Source: a virus (taxonomy: Duplodnaviria; Caudoviricetes). Taken from it: a stretch of 31,755 nucleotides of DNA. Position 1 is the first letter of the stretch, and each line of letters begins with the position of its first letter. The DNA lies in the IMG/VR virus record IMGVR_UViG_3300048080_000224, positions 1 through 31,755 of that record. One strand, given 5' to 3'. Shown piece by piece: positions 1,010 through 7,467 of the stretch. The notes beneath the pieces are model-generated. The model had not been told where the DNA came from and did not search any database. It saw only the letters and a list, made by a program, of their open reading frames with translations. The position numbers and the translations under genes were made by a program.

Positions 1010-2470
1010 GTGGCCCTCTCGCCCAAGACTGCCGGCACGTGGGCGCGCCTCGTCGTTGACGGCACCGTTGCCATTCCCGGCTCGCCTGCAGCGGGCGACC
1101 GGATGTTCCTCTTCGCGTCGTGGAAGGACTGGGCCATCACGGTCGCCCAGCCTTCCGGCTGGACGCTGATCGGCACGGAGTTCGCCGACGGCACCGTCAA
1201 CGCTGGCGTCAGTACCGGCTCCGTCAAGGTCATGGCCTGGTACCGCGATTGGCAGTCGGGTGATACGGCGCCGACGGTCGACTGGTCGGCCAACCCGACC
1301 GAGGGCCACGTCGTCATCATGCTCTGGCAGAAGGCGGCGGCCGACATCTGGGACACGCCGCTGACGGTCACGGCGGGGATCGCGGCCGCCGACCCCTTCA
1401 CCGTCAATGCCAGCAGCACCGTCGACGTGCCCTCGGGTGGCGTCGTCATGGGTCTCATCGGCCTGCGCGACGACTCGGCGACGATCGCCCGTGCCACTGA
1501 CGCCATCGACGACACGGGCGCGCTCGTGACGTGGAACGGCAACTACGTCGAGAACCCGTCAGGACACTTCACCAGCACGACCGGTCAGGACATGTCGGGC
1601 GACCTCGGCCACCGGCTGGTCACGACGGGTGCAGCTGGTGTCACCCTGCACATGGACGGCGACCCGGCTGCTGCGGAGACGGGGGCCGCCAAGTTTGTCG
1701 TCCAGGGCGTCCACACTGACACGACGGTCACGCCGGACGTCGCCAGTCTGACGACGGCCACCTTTGCGCCGACGGTCACGGCGACGCAGAACCAGCTCAT
1801 CACGCCGGACACGCTGGCGCTCACCGCAACGACATTCGCACCGGCCGTCACGGCGACCGATCACAAGGTCGTTACGCCGGGTATCGCCGCGTTGGTCACG
1901 ACGACGTTCGCGCCCGTCGTCGGCCTCGGTGTCATTCCGGGTACGGTCGCGCTGACACTGGCGGCGTTCGCGCCGGCGGTATCGGTCAGCGACAACGTGA
2001 CAGTCACACCCGGTGTGGCGAGCCTCGTTACGGCGACGTTTGCGCCGACCGTGCTGACGCCGGTCCTCTCGACGCCAGACGTAATCGCCCTCGTCCTGAC
2101 GACCTTCGCATCGACGATCGGCGTGTCGGACAACATCGTCGTCACGCCGGCTGTCACGGCATTGGCGCTGAGCGCCTTTGCGCCGGACGTGACCGTCGGT
2201 GGTGGTAGCGTCGTCGTCACGCCGGGTGTAGCGGCGCTGGTCCTGACGGCGTTCAGCCCGACAGTGGTTGCGACTGCGACTCAGATCGGCAGCGGAGTCG
2301 CTCGACGCCAGCGCCGGTTCGGGATTGAGCCCATGCGCTTCGCGCCGACACTGATACCGCCCAGCCAGCACGTGACAGTGATGCCAGCTGCGGCCTCAAT
2401 CGCCCTCACGACGTTCGCGCCGACCGTCATCGTCAATGACGACGATCTTGTCCTGCTGCTCACCATGTGA
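1010..2470 (+). CDS. Repeat-containing putative virion fibre protein (486 aa)
   Basis: N-terminal globular region, nine TPxxxxLxxxxFAPxV-like repeats, acidic/Leu C-terminus NDDDLVLLLTM. Confidence 0.6.
   Translation: MALSPKTAGTWARLVVDGTVAIPGSPAAGDRMFLFASWKDWAITVAQPSGWTLIGTEFADGTVNAGVSTGSVKVMAWYRDWQSGDTAPTVDWSANPTEGHVVIMLWQKAAADIWDTPLTVTAGIAAADPFTVNASSTVDVPSGGVVMGLIGLRDDSATIARATDAIDDTGALVTWNGNYVENPSGHFTSTTGQDMSGDLGHRLVTTGAAGVTLHMDGDPAAAETGAAKFVVQGVHTDTTVTPDVASLTTATFAPTVTATQNQLITPDTLALTATTFAPAVTATDHKVVTPGIAALVTTTFAPVVGLGVIPGTVALTLAAFAPAVSVSDNVTVTPGVASLVTATFAPTVLTPVLSTPDVIALVLTTFASTIGVSDNIVVTPAVTALALSAFAPDVTVGGGSVVVTPGVAALVLTAFSPTVVATATQIGSGVARRQRRFGIEPMRFAPTLIPPSQHVTVMPAAASIALTTFAPTVIVNDDDLVLLLTM
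1730..2428 (+). repeat. Nine imperfect coding repeats (~20-25 aa period, core TPGVAALxxTxFAPxV)
   Basis: Read directly from the translation of 1010..2470: eight tandem copies plus one after a spacer. Confidence 0.9.
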
Positions 2471-2475
2471 GACCG

Positions 2476-2740
2476 ATGGCTGAATGGACCGCCGCTTACA
2501 TCAGACGGCGAACGGATCCTGTCGCCTATGAACGGATGCTGGCGTCAAACCGGGTGTGGCATGCCGCGAACCGGCCGCGAGTGCGAGAGCGACATCGGGT
2601 CTGGCGCACGGCGGGGGTCAAAGCTCACCTTGCCGCTTACCAGCGCGGGTGGAGAGCGCAGGCCGGTGCCGTCCCGCGAGCGTTGCGATCTGAGTACGAC
2701 TGTATCGCTGGTGCTCGCAATGCAAACAATCGATCGCGGC
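2476..2740 (+). pseudogene. HNH endonuclease, 5' fragment (interrupted by IS)
   Basis: Arg-rich helical N-terminus. Joins 6513..6727 in frame when the IS and one TSD copy are removed (480 nt, 159 aa). Confidence 0.9.
2733..2740 (+). repeat. Target-site duplication, left copy (ATCGCGGC)
   Basis: Identical to 6505..6512 and abuts the TIR. Confidence 0.97.
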
Positions 2741-2761
2741 GGTAGTGTCTCAGTTTGAATC
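2741..2761 (+). repeat. Terminal inverted repeat GGTAGTGTCTCAGTTTGAATC
   Basis: Exact reverse complement of 6484..6504; GGTA start is IS1-like. Confidence 0.97.
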
Positions 2762-3373
2762 GGGCGGCTCCGCCGTGGCCTCCTGGGCGGCAGCCTGAAC
2801 TGAAGCCACGACGCTGCGAGGCGTGACCAGCGTCCGCGTGTCGTTGACGTGGTAGAGGAAGTTCAAATCATCGAGACGGATGGCGAGTCCGTTGCACGCC
2901 TGCTGCAGGTGATACGAGGGTCGGATCGCGAAGTACGCATTCCGAACGACGATGCCATGCGCCACTGCCTCTTGGACGGGCTGGCAGAAGTCGGCGTCGG
3001 CGGCCAGCAGGATCAGCGTATCGCAGGCGTTAGTGACGGCGAGCTTGTAGATCAGGAGCGTGAGCGTGCTGTCCGTGCCCTTCTGGCGCGGTTCACCACC
3101 CGGCCATTGCAGGGGCAGGATGTCGACCTCCCAGCCGAGCGTATCCCGCAATACGCCGTTGAAAAACTGCTCCTGCTTGGCCTTCACGACCGGGTTTCGT
3201 TCGTTGATCGAGTCGACGTAGTGGACGCCAGGACCGGTCAGGTTGTAGTTCTGGGCGAGTAGCCGAGCGAGCCGCTTTGGGCTGTATCGGTAGCCCTGCT
3301 CACGGAACGGCTTGAAGACGTTGAACAGATAGCCGCCGTCGATCACGATCCGCAAACGGTTGCTCGTTGCCAC
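2750..3373 (-). CDS. NYN-domain (LabA/DUF88, PIN-fold) putative RNase
   Basis: Motifs IVIDGGYL, QKGTD, LILLAADADF and SYHLQQAC. SD AGAGGA 7 nt before GTG. Stop codon lies inside the TIR. Confidence 0.9.
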   Translation of the reverse strand: MATSNRLRIVIDGGYLFNVFKPFREQGYRYSPKRLARLLAQNYNLTGPGVHYVDSINERNPVVKAKQEQFFNGVLRDTLGWEVDILPLQWPGGEPRQKGTDSTLTLLIYKLAVTNACDTLILLAADADFCQPVQEAVAHGIVVRNAYFAIRPSYHLQQACNGLAIRLDDLNFLYHVNDTRTLVTPRSVVASVQAAAQEATAEPPDSN

Positions 3374-3498
3374 AGACTCATCCTCTGCCCTGCGTGGAGG
3401 GCTGCTAGATAGAGGAAAGGCTAGTGCCCGAAGGGGGCACTAGCCTGAGTCCTTGAATACCCGCGCACGCCAAAGACGTGCGTGGGGGGTCCTTTGAG
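3374..3498 (-). ncRNA. Candidate structured leader / cis-encoded RNA upstream of the NYN gene
   Basis: Three hairpins: ~3460-3486; perfect 12-bp stem 3418-3429/3435-3446; SD-sequestering stem 3381-3416. Lies downstream of a near-consensus promoter. Confidence 0.6.
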
Positions 3499-3504
3499 GC
3501 CTCT

Positions 3505-3533
3505 ATACTAGGTTTGTCAAGAGGGATTGTCAA
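3505..3533 (-). promoter_or_regulatory. Sigma70-type promoter for leader and NYN gene
   Basis: TTGACA (3533-3528), 17 nt, TAGTAT (3510-3505). A second TTGACA lies inside the spacer. Confidence 0.75.
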
Positions 3534-3574
3534 CCACGATTTCCACGACTGAATGCCACTTATCCACACTACAT

Positions 3575-4411
3575 TCAGTCCAGAAGCGCCGCGATCTCCT
3601 CACACGTCCAGATGTGATCGGCGATCCCGGCCGCCATCGCCGGGGTTCGCGGGTAGGGGTTCGCCAGCGACTTATGTGGTCGCCCGAAGTTGTAATACAT
3701 CATGTGCAAGGCGACCGACGCCGCGTGATTCTCGACCTTCTTTGAGAAGGCGTTTGTCAGCCGGGTGAACCGCCGATTGCCCATCCTCATGGTCAAGTTC
3801 GACCGCTCGACGTAGCTCGTGCTGATCTTCGCCGGGTCCGGATCGCCCTGAATGACCCGCACTTCCTCATCCAGCACGACGGGCGGGCTAAACTTCCGAT
3901 CCTCGTTCGGGTCCGTCCCGTAGTACTTGACCAGCATCGCGTAGTCGACCTCAGAGCCGAACGCTTCCTCGACGGCTGCCAGGTAGGGCTTGTGGCCGTC
4001 CGTGGTGAGCTGCACGCGATACCGCAGCCGATCGGCGAGGTCCAGTAGGAAGGCTTGGCAGTCAACCGCGTCCCGTAGACCGACGCGCCACGCGGGCATG
4101 AGCTTGGTGTCCGGGTCGATGCAGGTCCACGTCCACACGTCGCCCCAGCCGAACTCGCCCGCGTGCTTTTCAGGCACGTTGCGGTTCTTCGCGTGGCAAA
4201 AGGCCCACAGCTCGTCGCACTCGATCCGACTGCTCGTCAGGCCGCGCAGGTGTTCGTCCTGGTAGGCGGCGCTCGCCGCGCCCAGCTCGACCAGCAGCTT
4301 CGTCACGGTGTTGATGGACCGTCCGGTGATCCGGGTTGTCGACCGTAGGGAGTTGCCCTCGACCAGCAGTCGGATGATCTGCGCCCGTTCTGCTCGGCTC
4401 AGCCTGTTCAT
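3575..4411 (-). CDS. IS1-family DDE transposase (278 aa, single ORF, N-terminal HTH, no Zn finger)
   Basis: ECDELWAF, TTDGHKPY, TSYVERSNLTMRMGNRRFTRLTNAFSKK. ATG 4411 chosen because a -10-like CATACT lies 6 nt upstream. Confidence 0.93.
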   Translation of the reverse strand: MNRLSRAERAQIIRLLVEGNSLRSTTRITGRSINTVTKLLVELGAASAAYQDEHLRGLTSSRIECDELWAFCHAKNRNVPEKHAGEFGWGDVWTWTCIDPDTKLMPAWRVGLRDAVDCQAFLLDLADRLRYRVQLTTDGHKPYLAAVEEAFGSEVDYAMLVKYYGTDPNEDRKFSPPVVLDEEVRVIQGDPDPAKISTSYVERSNLTMRMGNRRFTRLTNAFSKKVENHAASVALHMMYYNFGRPHKSLANPYPRTPAMAAGIADHIWTCEEIAALLD

Positions 4412-4420
4412 GTGAACAGT

Positions 4421-4467
4421 ATGCTTGAGGAGTGTGACAGCTAGCATGTCACGATCTCCTCAAGCAT
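4421..4467. promoter_or_regulatory. Inverted repeat / operator-like site upstream of the transposase
   Basis: ATGCTTGAGGAG (4421-4432) and CTCCTCAAGCAT (4456-4467) form a perfect 12-bp IR, with an inner GTGACA/TGTCAC pair. Confidence 0.7.
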
Positions 4468-4487
4468 CTAATGACCGCCCGGGCTTG

Positions 4488-5537
4488 TCACTTGACGGCG
4501 TGCAGGCGCGGCTTCTCCCCGAACAGGCTCCTGAATTCCTCGGCAGGCAACCCAGCGATAGACACGAGGTCCTCGACCGAGTACTCGTGCTCCTGCTGGT
4601 GCAAGTTCATGATGGCCGTCACGAGCGTTGGGGCTTCGGTGGGGACCTCGACAGGCTCCATGAGCCGATAGCCAAGACGACTGAGCTGGGCATACAGGCC
4701 TTTTGCTCGCCCGGGCGCTATCACCCCGAGATCGCGCGCTCGGAGCACGAGCGCCGCCATCGAGACCTTCCAGTACGGCTTCAACTGCGCCGCTTTGGTC
4801 AGGTCGAGTCGGAGGAGATCAGACCGGATTTCTCGAGCGGGCATGAGGAACTCTGCGGCGAACTGGTCGGCCTCCTTCTCCATCTCCTGGTTCGGGATGC
4901 GGTGCATTACCATATGGCCCAGCTCGTGTGCCAACGAGAACCGGAGTCGATCGCCCGAAGCATCAGCGTTCAACAGGATGACCGGCGGCATGTTCGGGGG
5001 CCAATGGCTGACGGCATCGAGCTGCCGCGTGCCGAAGGAGATCCGGTAGACGATCCCTCCGGCGGATTCAAGCGCCGCGACGAGGTTGCCGACAGGGCCG
5101 AGTGGCAACCCCCAGCTCGCACGGACCATCTGCGCGATGCGCTGAGGCGATCCGCCGTACTCATCAATATCAAGGGTCGGGAAGGCGTTCGCCGCGTCGA
5201 TCGCCACATCGCGCAGCAACGGGGTGATCCCGATGCGAAGGACGTTCGCGGCAGCGTGGACAAGGCGGAGTGCCCCAACCGGGAGCGTCGCCTGCTTGCG
5301 ATGAAAGATGCACGCAGACCCGAAGCCGTAGACCTGATCCGTGCGGTAGAAGAAGTCCACGGGCCAATCGAGGGCCTCGGCGAGCCTCTCCACGGTGTCG
5401 CGCGGCGGCTCGAAGATGCCGTTCTCAGCTTTCGAGATGTAGCCCTGCGTCAGCCCGGCACGCGAGGCCAGATCGGACTGAGTGAGTCCCCTGTACTCGC
5501 GAACGAGGGTCAGCATGGCCGGATTCGGGCCAGCCAT
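4488..5537 (-). CDS. XRE-HTH + ImmA/IrrE Zn-metallopeptidase fusion (RmrA-like putative antitoxin/regulator)
   Basis: N-terminal REYRGLTQSDLASRAGLTQGYISKAENG HTH; RFSLAHELGH (HExxH); EKEADQFAAEFLMP. Confidence 0.93.
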   Translation of the reverse strand: MAGPNPAMLTLVREYRGLTQSDLASRAGLTQGYISKAENGIFEPPRDTVERLAEALDWPVDFFYRTDQVYGFGSACIFHRKQATLPVGALRLVHAAANVLRIGITPLLRDVAIDAANAFPTLDIDEYGGSPQRIAQMVRASWGLPLGPVGNLVAALESAGGIVYRISFGTRQLDAVSHWPPNMPPVILLNADASGDRLRFSLAHELGHMVMHRIPNQEMEKEADQFAAEFLMPAREIRSDLLRLDLTKAAQLKPYWKVSMAALVLRARDLGVIAPGRAKGLYAQLSRLGYRLMEPVEVPTEAPTLVTAIMNLHQQEHEYSVEDLVSIAGLPAEEFRSLFGEKPRLHAVK

Positions 5538-6146
5538 CTACTCGGCTTCCGCTTGCTCCGTCCGCTTTGGCCGGGTCGAGCGCGGGGTCGCGGGCGTTGG
5601 GCCGGTGGAGTCGATGGGCAGCGCGACCGGGGCCTCGTCCGACTGCGGCAGGTCGATCTGCCACACCACGCGGCTGCCTCGGATCAAGACGAGCACGAGC
5701 CGCTCAATCCCGGTTTCGAGCCGATCGAGGACATAACCCGCAACGACCATCGGAACCGGACTCCACAGGGACAGTTGCAAGCCGCCACCAGCGACCTGCT
5801 CCTGATTCGCGAAGAGCTGCTGCTGGCCGGTCGGGATGCCTCGCATCCTGAGGCTGTTGTCGAGCTTCTTAAACCGCATCAAGGCCTGAACGAAGTCCAG
5901 GATGAGGAGGCCGTGGCGGCGCTGCCTGCCGATGCCGCGAACGTCTTCGAACAGCTCCTCCGCCTTCGCCGTGGCGTGATCCCATACGATCCGGGCGCGG
6001 GCGCTCTTGCCGAGCCGCCGACCCTCGGGCGTCGCCCGAACTGCAGCCCACGCGGTCCAGCCCGCGAGAAGGCAGTCGACGATCAGCGAGAAGTGAGGTG
6101 CGAACAGCCCGCGAGCCTCGTCCTCGGAGATGAGGTCGTCGTCCAC
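5538..6146 (-). CDS. Putative toxin partner of the XRE-ImmA protein (RosmerTA RmrT-like; inferred from context)
   Basis: 202 aa; its stop abuts the ATG of the peptidase gene; own promoter; RFKKLD...PT.QQ..F...VAGYVLD segment. Confidence 0.55.
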   Translation of the reverse strand: MDDDLISEDEARGLFAPHFSLIVDCLLAGWTAWAAVRATPEGRRLGKSARARIVWDHATAKAEELFEDVRGIGRQRRHGLLILDFVQALMRFKKLDNSLRMRGIPTGQQQLFANQEQVAGGGLQLSLWSPVPMVVAGYVLDRLETGIERLVLVLIRGSRVVWQIDLPQSDEAPVALPIDSTGPTPATPRSTRPKRTEQAEAE

Positions 6147-6152
6147 AACGCA

Positions 6153-6181
6153 ACGATAGGTCTGCAGCCTGCCAAAGTCAA
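6153..6181 (-). promoter_or_regulatory. Promoter for the toxin-peptidase operon (leaderless)
   Basis: TTGACT, 17 nt, TATCGT, 6 nt, GTG(6146). Confidence 0.75.
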
Positions 6182-6199
6182 CGCCAGAAATGAACGATT

Positions 6200-6439
6200 T
6201 TATGAATGACGCGCCCAGCGGGCTTCGGCTGCACGCTTCGCGATCTCCCGACGACGCTCGGGACTGAGTTTCGCTGCCCGCTTCGGGCCTCCGATCAGTC
6301 CGCCACGCCGACCTAACTCTACGGATGCCGGGTCTTTTGCCCGTTCAGGTTCAGGCTCAGGGTCCGCCTCGCCAGCGGCCATCTGAACCGTCAACCAGGC
6401 GCGTTGGTTCATGTCGCGCGGCATCTTTCGCTTTTGCAC
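6200..6439 (-). CDS. Small basic IS-associated protein (79 aa, GRRGGLIGG/KGG-like motif)
   Basis: KDPASVELGRRGGLIGGPKRAAKLSPERRREIAKRAAEARW; first gene inside the TIR, with its own promoter. Confidence 0.75.
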   Translation of the reverse strand: MQKRKMPRDMNQRAWLTVQMAAGEADPEPEPERAKDPASVELGRRGGLIGGPKRAAKLSPERRREIAKRAAEARWARHS

Positions 6440-6442
6440 CCC

Positions 6443-6478
6443 TCAAGCATGCTCCGAACGCCGGAGGGGGTCAAGCAT
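6443..6478 (-). promoter_or_regulatory. Promoter of the small basic gene, overlapped by two ATGCTTGA boxes
   Basis: TTGACC, 17 nt, CATGCT, 6 nt, GTG(6439). TCAAGCAT at 6443-6450 and 6471-6478. Confidence 0.7.
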
Positions 6479-6483
6479 CCGCT

Positions 6484-6504
6484 GATTCAAACTGAGACAC
6501 TACC
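6484..6504 (-). repeat. Terminal inverted repeat (GATTCAAACTGAGACACTACC on + strand)
   Basis: Exact reverse complement of 2741..2761. Confidence 0.97.
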
Positions 6505-6512
6505 ATCGCGGC
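6505..6512 (+). repeat. Target-site duplication, right copy (ATCGCGGC)
   Basis: Identical to 2733..2740. Confidence 0.97.
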
Positions 6513-6727
6513 GCATCGGCCAGGTGGATCGAATTACGACGGGCCAAGTTCGAGCCGTCATGTCGATAGGCATGTGTGCCCAATGCGGCAGTTCGGCTCA
6601 GCCGACACTCGATCACATCATGCCGCTGTCGCGCGGCGGATTGAATGTCCAGACCAATCTCCAACGACTGTGCTTCCCGTGCAATTCGGGCAAGCGAGCC
6701 GCACTACCAGTAGAGGTGGCAGCGTGA
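6513..6727 (+). pseudogene. HNH endonuclease, 3' fragment (catalytic domain)
   Basis: CAQCG...TLDHIMPLSRGGLNVQTNLQRLCFPCNSGK. No independent start outside the IS. Confidence 0.92.
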
Positions 6728-7467
6728 TGGATCGCAAGGCATTTACCCCGATCGAGGTGAAGCTCGATGAGACTGGCTCCATTGAGCTTGCCTTCTCCCG
6801 CCTGAATGTGATCGACGCCGACGGCGACGTGACGCTGACGGGGGCGATCCCGGCCAAGGATGTCCCGATGTCGGCTTATGGACATACGAGCTGGGATGGA
6901 GCACTGCCGATTGGGAAAGGGTCGATCTCAGAGCAGGGTGGACTCGGCGTGTTTAAGGGCCGCTTCTTCCTGGAGACGACCCATGGTCGGGATGCCTACG
7001 AAACGGTAAAGGGACTAGGCGCGCTCGCCGAATACAGCTACGGCTACAACGTCATCGACGGCGGGCCGGGCACGTTCGACGGCAAGCGGGTGCGCGAGCT
7101 CCGCAAGCTCGACGTATTCGAGGTCTCGCCTGTCCTGAAAGGTGCCGGCGTCGGCACCGCCACACTCGCGATCAAGAGCGGCGCACCGGCATCCGATGCG
7201 CCGTTTGTCGAGCAGCTCTCCTGGTACTCCGAGGGACTGCCGGCGCTTCTAGATCGGATCAAGGGCCACGCCGCCGCGCGTGCCTCGGAGGGCCGCAAGC
7301 TCTCCCGGGCGGACCGTGCGGCGCTCGAGGAGCTTGTCGAGTCGCTCGACGGGCAACTCACCGCGGCCCGCGATCTGCTCACGGTCATCGACCCTCCGAA
7401 GATGGTCGATCCCGTGACGATGGACATCTACGTCGGCGAGCTTCGGCTCCTCGGCGTCGAGGTCTGA
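6727..7467 (+). CDS. HK97-family prohead maturation protease (246 aa)
   Basis: IDADGDV..GA, YGH, YSYGYNV, RELRKLDVFEVSPV..GA. TGATG overlap with the HNH stop. Confidence 0.9.
   Translation: MDRKAFTPIEVKLDETGSIELAFSRLNVIDADGDVTLTGAIPAKDVPMSAYGHTSWDGALPIGKGSISEQGGLGVFKGRFFLETTHGRDAYETVKGLGALAEYSYGYNVIDGGPGTFDGKRVRELRKLDVFEVSPVLKGAGVGTATLAIKSGAPASDAPFVEQLSWYSEGLPALLDRIKGHAAARASEGRKLSRADRAALEELVESLDGQLTAARDLLTVIDPPKMVDPVTMDIYVGELRLLGVEV

Follow-up and report, generated by a model that had tools for sequence, protein, structure and literature searches.

The layout that defines type III toxin-antitoxin systems is a promoter, repeats, a terminator and an RNase gene (PMC5086642, PMC12283969), and the RNA-antitoxin systems treated in the accessible text of reviews use ToxN, HEPN (AbiF) or deaminase (AvcD) toxins (PMC12283969). 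In AbiF/RCd22, as far as its available description goes, the RNA contains two copies of a motif and works in trans (10.1101/2025.04.15.648962), and phage mimics of ToxI, called pseudo-ToxI, exist (PMC5086642). Herein, we describe a related arrangement in a 31,755-nt stretch of viral DNA (IMG/VR record IMGVR_UViG_3300048080_000224; Duplodnaviria, Caudoviricetes), the whole of which is called the window. In the window, an IS1-like insertion sequence (IS) carries the gene of a NYN-domain protein, a predicted RNase, behind a structured leader RNA. We consider it probable that leader and gene constitute a type III-like toxin-antitoxin unit, in which the RNA would be the antitoxin and the NYN protein a toxin of new fold.

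The locus resembles AbiF with AbiFr/RCd22, as described in the accessible parts of its literature, in having one promoter, a short two-motif RNA, an intrinsic-type terminator, an RNase gene on a mobile element and no protein antitoxin (10.1101/2025.04.15.648962, PMC12737573). It differs in that the putative toxin is a PIN-like NYN protein, not a HEPN protein, and in that the stem of the second unit is itself the terminator; the abiF RNA motif (RF03085) gave no match to the leaders. The likeness to ToxIN, CptIN and TenpIN lies in distant plasmid-borne NYN relatives, which show the terminator and upstream tandem repeats of the locus rule given for those systems (PMC5086642). In contrast to these systems, the protein in the window has no ToxN homology (only PF01936 was matched, and the top fold matches are NYN domains), the units are simple hairpins that have an A/C-rich linker, and the window holds two short motif copies instead of a long array. 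Since toxin fold and RNA both differ, the unit is not a member of ToxIN, CptIN, TenpIN or AbiF; by analogy, it likely works in the way these systems do. Searches of the full-text literature, mostly open-access, brought up no cis RNA for any NYN system; the motif could be listed in the supplements of RNA-motif surveys, which lay outside this scope.

Architecture of the leader RNA

The leader is read from the minus strand in the order promoter, approximately 85 nt of two units, each an AA-NN-AC-Y-C motif followed by a stem, and NYN gene, and the second stem is terminator-like. The sigma-70-type promoter (TTGACA-17-TAGTAT, 3505..3533) has 10 of 12 consensus matches and a predicted start near 3499. 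Sites of this type numbered 3 in 2400-6800, compared with 0.7 ± 0.9 in shuffles, and a consensus scan showed no second promoter between the 3533-3505 site and the NYN gene; a single predicted promoter serves both the RNA and the gene. Repeat motif 1 (3487..3497, minus strand), the 5' flank of unit 1 with the core AA-GG-AC-C-C, includes TCAAAGGAC at 3497-3489. Hairpin 1 (3460..3486, minus strand) follows, in which the C-G base pairs at the foot are invariant while the upper stem and the loop are variable. Repeat motif 2 (3447..3456, minus strand), the 5' flank of unit 2 with the core AA-GG-AC-T-C, includes TCAAGGAC at 3456-3449 and lies 40 nt from the first copy; true arrays were seen only in distant plasmid relatives. 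The terminator-like hairpin 2 (3411..3446, minus strand) is a perfect 12-bp stem (3446-3418) followed by TTCCTCT, which gives a short U tract, and its stem has a pair probability of 0.96. In folding energy, the region 3410-3505 beat 200 of 200 shuffles (z -6.58), while hairpin 1 with its flanks alone folded less strongly (z -1.98, equalled by 8 of 200 shuffles). No Rfam family was matched by any leader scanned. The promoter, the hairpin bracketed by near-direct repeats and the 12-bp stem were thus all present where the initial annotation, made from the letters of the window, had placed them. A further stem proposed there (3381..3416, minus strand), which pairs TCCTCT (3416-3411) with the Shine-Dalgarno sequence AGAGGA (3386-3381), does exist in the minimum-energy fold of the window but is absent from the relatives; a conserved Shine-Dalgarno gate was therefore rejected, and this stem has no place in the proposed mechanism.

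Conservation and covariation in close relatives

Scans for the close-relative set gave 39 loci, among them 8 full-length relatives at 52-71% protein identity, one of which (L002) is cut upstream. The series of motif, hairpin, motif, terminator-like hairpin, U tract and NYN gene was found in all 7 close relatives with upstream DNA (fold z -3.9 to -7.0), and the U tract comprises 4-7 U in most of them. A strict promoter was found at the same position in 4 of the 7 (L001, L003, L004 and L020); L007 starts at a contig end. The sequence of hairpin 2 varies freely with compensation. Both sides had changed in 7 of 12 consensus pairs, and the covariation score was 0.381, compared with 0.152 for shuffled and at most 0.158 for slid alignments, and was reached by 0 of 500 shuffles; it counts against this evidence that kinship inflates such scores, and that the close family comprises only 8 leaders, of which L004 and L020 are close kin, so that the covariation counts are not independent. 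A covariance model built from the 7 relatives with the window left out gave a single site in the window, at 3412-3500 (E ~1e-7). The conserved, covarying structure upstream of NYN homologues that the initial annotation had named as a check is thus present, with covariation above that of the shuffles.

The AA-NN-AC-Y-C motif fits 12 of 16 sites exactly and all 16 when a spacer of 1-3 nt is allowed, compared with a background of 0.11 per kb across the window. Where a locus has the motif in its exact form (6 loci), the NN letters of its two copies agree, in total at 10 of 12 positions, a value reached by 4 of 720 permutations, and they differ between loci. A motif that is kept in sequence while the stems vary has the pattern of a protein-binding site. 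The same evidence bears on regulation in cis alone, in which NYN would bind or cut the motif of its leader and thereby restrain its own production, with the short RNA as a by-product and an enzyme that need not be toxic. RNase E, RNase III and PNPase are known to be autoregulated through their leaders, and regulation in cis accounts for the conserved motif, the concordance within loci and the link to NYN equally well. However, it requires neither a strong terminator after the motif nor growth to 4-5 units, and no leaders were detected in the conserved NYN clades of housekeeping type, in which it would predict them; they cluster in long-branch, sporadic clades (see below). We therefore regard it as unlikely, though it is the most serious of the alternatives.

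The terminator stem was stable in all 8 leaders, with a pair probability of 0.94-0.99 and a best alternative that was 6.7-21 kcal/mol worse. Riboswitch-like switching was rejected, as no antiterminator or alternative fold is conserved among the 8 leaders, and the idea of a conserved RNA switch gating NYN falls with it. A related proposal is an attenuator gated by a sensor, in which a phage or host factor would bind the motif, allow read-through and turn on a toxic NYN only upon infection; phage-activated AbiD1 offers a comparison. The position of the terminator between promoter and gene, a protein-type motif by the terminator foot and the defence genes near some loci are in its favor, but no alternative fold competes with the terminator, and multi-unit arrays at a distance from the terminator are better suited to titration than to antitermination. 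We judge this proposal improbable.

The hairpins could also be merely the terminator of the transposase or an insulator of the IS, given that the end of an IS1-like transposase gene lies just upstream in the window, L004, L005 and L020. There was no transposase match upstream in L001, where a divergent integrase-like open reading frame (ORF) is found, or in L003 and L006, and the RNA is kept in all three; the hairpin is therefore more than a transposase terminator. In addition, a dedicated predicted promoter stands between the transposase stop codon and the hairpins, and this explanation leaves hairpin 1 and the repeats without a role. It has already been largely refuted, and we give it very little weight. 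In L020 (1049-1700), the NYN gene is split by a frameshift and the leader is intact.

The NYN protein

The NYN gene (2750..3373, minus strand) encodes a PIN-like protein of the LabA/DUF88 type, a predicted RNase of 207 aa, and its stop codon lies within the IS end. Against Pfam, the ORF matched only PF01936 (32.9 bits, cut-off 24.2). The structure was predicted with a pLDDT confidence score of 93.3, and the best solved matches were VPA0982 (2QIP, E 1.4e-8) and the NYN domains of MARF1. Residues D12, D101, D126 and D128 were invariant across 44 diverse aligned NYN proteins, and the protein is thus predicted, from its sequence, to be an RNase with an intact active site. As the initial annotation had noted, no protein partner is adjacent: none is encoded between the transposase gene and the right end of the element.

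The comparison proteins VPA0982 (2QIP), HEC-09 and the CRISPR-associated NYN of B. fragilis (NYN.COG1432 / LabA-DUF88) share the fold and the aspartates of the window NYN; unlike the case of the window NYN, the accessible parts of their literature mention no cis RNA. The B. fragilis protein is described in the available text as a non-specific, Mn-dependent endonuclease of single-stranded RNA (10.1101/2024.04.08.588522), and the NYN.COG1432 family as one of unknown function (PMC5499597). Membership of the window protein in HEC-09 was rejected: the match covers only 43 residues (E 2e-4), HEC-09 has an extra N-terminal domain, and no defence was reported in the text available for it (10.1101/2024.01.29.577857).

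Tandem arrays in plasmid relatives

For one of the NYN clades with a leader, 436 plasmid records were matched, small E. coli plasmids among them. Of 11 records of this clade inspected by eye, 8 had a terminator-like hairpin preceded by other hairpins, 1 had none and 2 were unclear; among 10 more records (8 plasmid and 2 phage, 3 of them near-identical to L170), the layout was found in 7, repeats without a U tract in 1 and neither in 2. On a 4.5-kb Klebsiella plasmid, a promoter is followed by a tandem array of 4 hairpin units (period 33, 3.8 copies), a terminator and the NYN gene, and in near-identical E. coli plasmids the hairpin units before NYN number 4 or 5. In the Phaeobacter and Acetobacter relatives (39-45% protein identity), this plasmid-type hairpin is present as 1 copy, and a compensatory change was seen inside the plasmid array. 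When the array was matched against plasmid records, 18 of 19 were NYN plasmids and the remaining one matched the terminator part only; in a 3.5-kb E. coli plasmid, NYN is the sole annotated cargo gene besides rop and nikA.

Three public annotations deserve mention. In L180 (294-1148) and L181 (324-1148), the annotated NYN coding sequence stretches upstream over the repeat array and hides the RNA, and in L173 (774-1730) a leader-bearing NYN relative bears the name of a nicotine-pathway monooxygenase, probably through a misannotation that has been propagated.

Leaders in the wider NYN family

A total of 140 NYN loci were taken from the earlier scans, the top 30 of one listing and 60 hand-picked from the same listing, favouring single-domain genes; 4 without a usable N-terminus and 2 with too little upstream DNA were set aside, leaving 134. 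A leader with promoter plus terminator was detected before 20 of the 134 NYN genes, the window and 4 close relatives included, and before 15 of 92 in the Acidobacteriota sample, compared with none in 402 shuffles and with 6 among 277 other ORFs (up to three starts each). A terminator alone does not discriminate, being found in 96 of 402 shuffles. The detector is conservative and misses L005, L006 and a Sphingomonadales leader that is visible by eye. This last is a near-invariant, branched hairpin of 75 nt between a promoter-like site and the gene in Sphingomonadales-type NYN loci (L008-L011, L014-L019, L023-L026, L029 and L032-L039); those of these leaders that were scanned had no match in Rfam.

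The leader-positive genes fall in long-branch, sporadic clades, with none in conserved clades of 41, 16 and 5 rows, as placed by a quick tree with its deep nodes open. The two-unit layout recurs with distant NYN proteins in L124, L064 and L078, and other loci have one or three units. For a count of neighbours, 20 leader loci were used (15 detector positives and 5 chosen by eye): 7 of these 20 have a restriction, DUF499/DUF1156 or AbiEii gene within ~1.5 kb (146 of 152 ORFs scanned), and among 29 leader-negative loci a neighbour of these kinds was found at 1 (stricter threshold, 81 of 138 ORFs scanned). In L157, L158, L161, L163 and L164, leader-bearing NYN genes are situated inside type I restriction-modification operons and a DUF499/DUF1156 cluster.

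Specificity of the RNA and evidence against the toxin-antitoxin reading

A generic, portable leader or small RNA, such as an attenuator, might stand by chance before accessory genes, NYN among them. To the credit of this explanation, the leader folds differ between NYN clades, and two phage contigs carry plasmid-type units without NYN. These orphan copies (L193:98-115 and L195:901-918) have retained the linker, the hairpin and a terminator-like stem; the genes behind them are a major head gene and a neck gene, and no NYN match was found in either contig (18% and 89% complete). They are either candidate decoys of the antitoxin, for which the pseudo-ToxI mimics of phages described in the accessible text offer a possible parallel (PMC5086642), or the sign of a generic leader.

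Specificity speaks against the generic leader. Over 291 kb, model R1 of the RNA matched only the sites of its training set (E < 0.2), and over 124 kb it gave no match; its only strong match in 151 Acidobacteriota genomes was the NYN locus, with two weak matches lacking both the full layout and a NYN gene. R1 is narrow, as the leaders of L064 and L078, which can be recognised by eye, escaped it. The plasmid-type hairpin occurred in 0 of 401 Pseudomonadota genomes searched, nearly all plasmid records matching the array were NYN plasmids, as given above, and no switch is conserved. A generic leader is thus quite unlikely in our estimate, less probable than regulation in cis and somewhat more so than the sensor-gated attenuator. 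The close NYN subfamily itself was not found in viral contigs, plasmids or phages, nor in 401 Acidobacteriota genomes beyond the seed genome, and a motif scan of viral contigs returned 2 matches, both in coding DNA of unrelated viruses and judged to be chance. The analogy to type III and AbiF systems drawn by the initial annotation accordingly stands in part: the tandem arrays of distant plasmid relatives strengthen it, and the orphan phage copies leave room for the generic leader.

Several observations weigh against reading the unit as an RNA antitoxin with its toxin. Only 1 of the 3 viral matches to the plasmid-type hairpin lies before NYN, the 2 others being the orphan copies. The window RNA and the plasmid arrays share only the layout and a C-rich linker, so that homology of the RNAs is not established, and with the plasmid NYN proteins the close-family profile gives E-values of only 8e-11 to 8e-4. 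In the window, the U tract is short and weak, and a consensus terminator scan made no call at hairpin 2. The motif is not everywhere predicted to be unpaired, with a mean of 0.19-0.95 across leaders and of 0.47 and 0.19 for the copies in the window. A pseudoknot as in ToxI/CptI was rejected for the one pseudoknot type checked, the loop-to-linker pairing being 2-5 bp and not conserved in the 8 leaders. As for the neighbours, 13 of the 20 leader loci are without a defence gene, and 4 of the 7 with one belong to a single clade. The NYN protein of B. fragilis was co-expressed in E. coli, and toxicity goes unmentioned in the accessible text (10.1101/2024.04.08.588522); HEC-09, cloned with its putative native promoter, gave no phage defence according to the available part of its report (10.1101/2024.01.29.577857), a result that also favors regulation in cis.

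The IS1-like element and its phage setting

As a virus record, the window is linear and approximately 40% complete, and it contains phage head and connector genes. The IS1-like element (2741..6504, minus strand) has identical 21-bp inverted ends (2741-2761 and 6484-6504, 21/21) and is flanked by an 8-bp target duplication (2733-2740 and 6505-6512); these perfect ends and duplication suggest a recent insertion. It interrupts a phage HNH endonuclease gene (pieces 2467-2740 and 6505-6727, plus strand), just upstream of the prohead protease gene. All of its cargo is on the minus strand and comprises a small gene, an unknown gene, an RmrA-like helix-turn-helix (HTH)-peptidase gene, the transposase gene and the NYN gene. 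The transposase gene (3575..4447, minus strand) ends 41 nt upstream of the NYN promoter, and its matches to IS1 models were all below the cut-offs (NF033558, E 1.2e-14).

The three other IS genes with promoter-like sites (4447, 6146 and 6439, minus strand) start 6 nt past the -10 box and are read as leaderless, in agreement with the remark of the initial annotation that the NYN leader stands out among them. A related inverted repeat overlaps two of these three promoters. The RmrA-like HTH-peptidase gene (PADLOC, E 1e-65) is coupled to an upstream gene for a 202-aa protein of no known family (both in 4488-6146, minus strand), at the position that we take to be that of the toxin in a RosmerTA-type layout; the two genes are possibly a second toxin-antitoxin pair within one IS.

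Proposed mechanism and implications

The functional steps of the unit, namely transcription, toxicity, RNA binding and defence, are inferred by analogy with AbiF/RCd22 and type III systems. A constitutive promoter would yield mostly a short RNA that stops near 3415, with few transcripts reading through into NYN, and the terminator-like second stem is predicted to set this RNA in excess of the NYN protein. NYN would recognise the AA-NN-AC-Y-C motif at the foot of each stem and be held inactive there, conceivably with one unit for each subunit of a NYN dimer, and it may also cut at this site. Loss of the RNA, either when transcription is shut off by phage infection or when the element is lost, would free an RNase of low specificity and lead to abortive infection or addiction. 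The settings, as IS cargo in the window, as plasmid cargo and beside defence genes, suit a selfish or a defence role.

Tentatively, and with a good deal more doubt than for the unit itself, the loci may represent a widespread, overlooked NYN/PIN family with RNA antitoxins that extends from the IS cargo of environmental phages to small E. coli plasmids, in which the unit expands to arrays, acts against phages and is met by orphan phage RNAs serving as decoys. For the primary work on AbiF and Cas13, we rely on reviews. If this broader proposal is true, the NYN family would be the PIN-fold counterpart of the AbiF-to-Cas13 path, which leads from an RNA antidote to a repeat array, and the orphan phage copies would be ready candidates for counter-defence. 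An RNA antidote could also explain why a NYN candidate gave no phenotype when its native upstream DNA was cloned along with it. A NYN/PIN version would add a new toxin fold to the RNA-antitoxin systems and assign a role to part of the LabA/DUF88 family.
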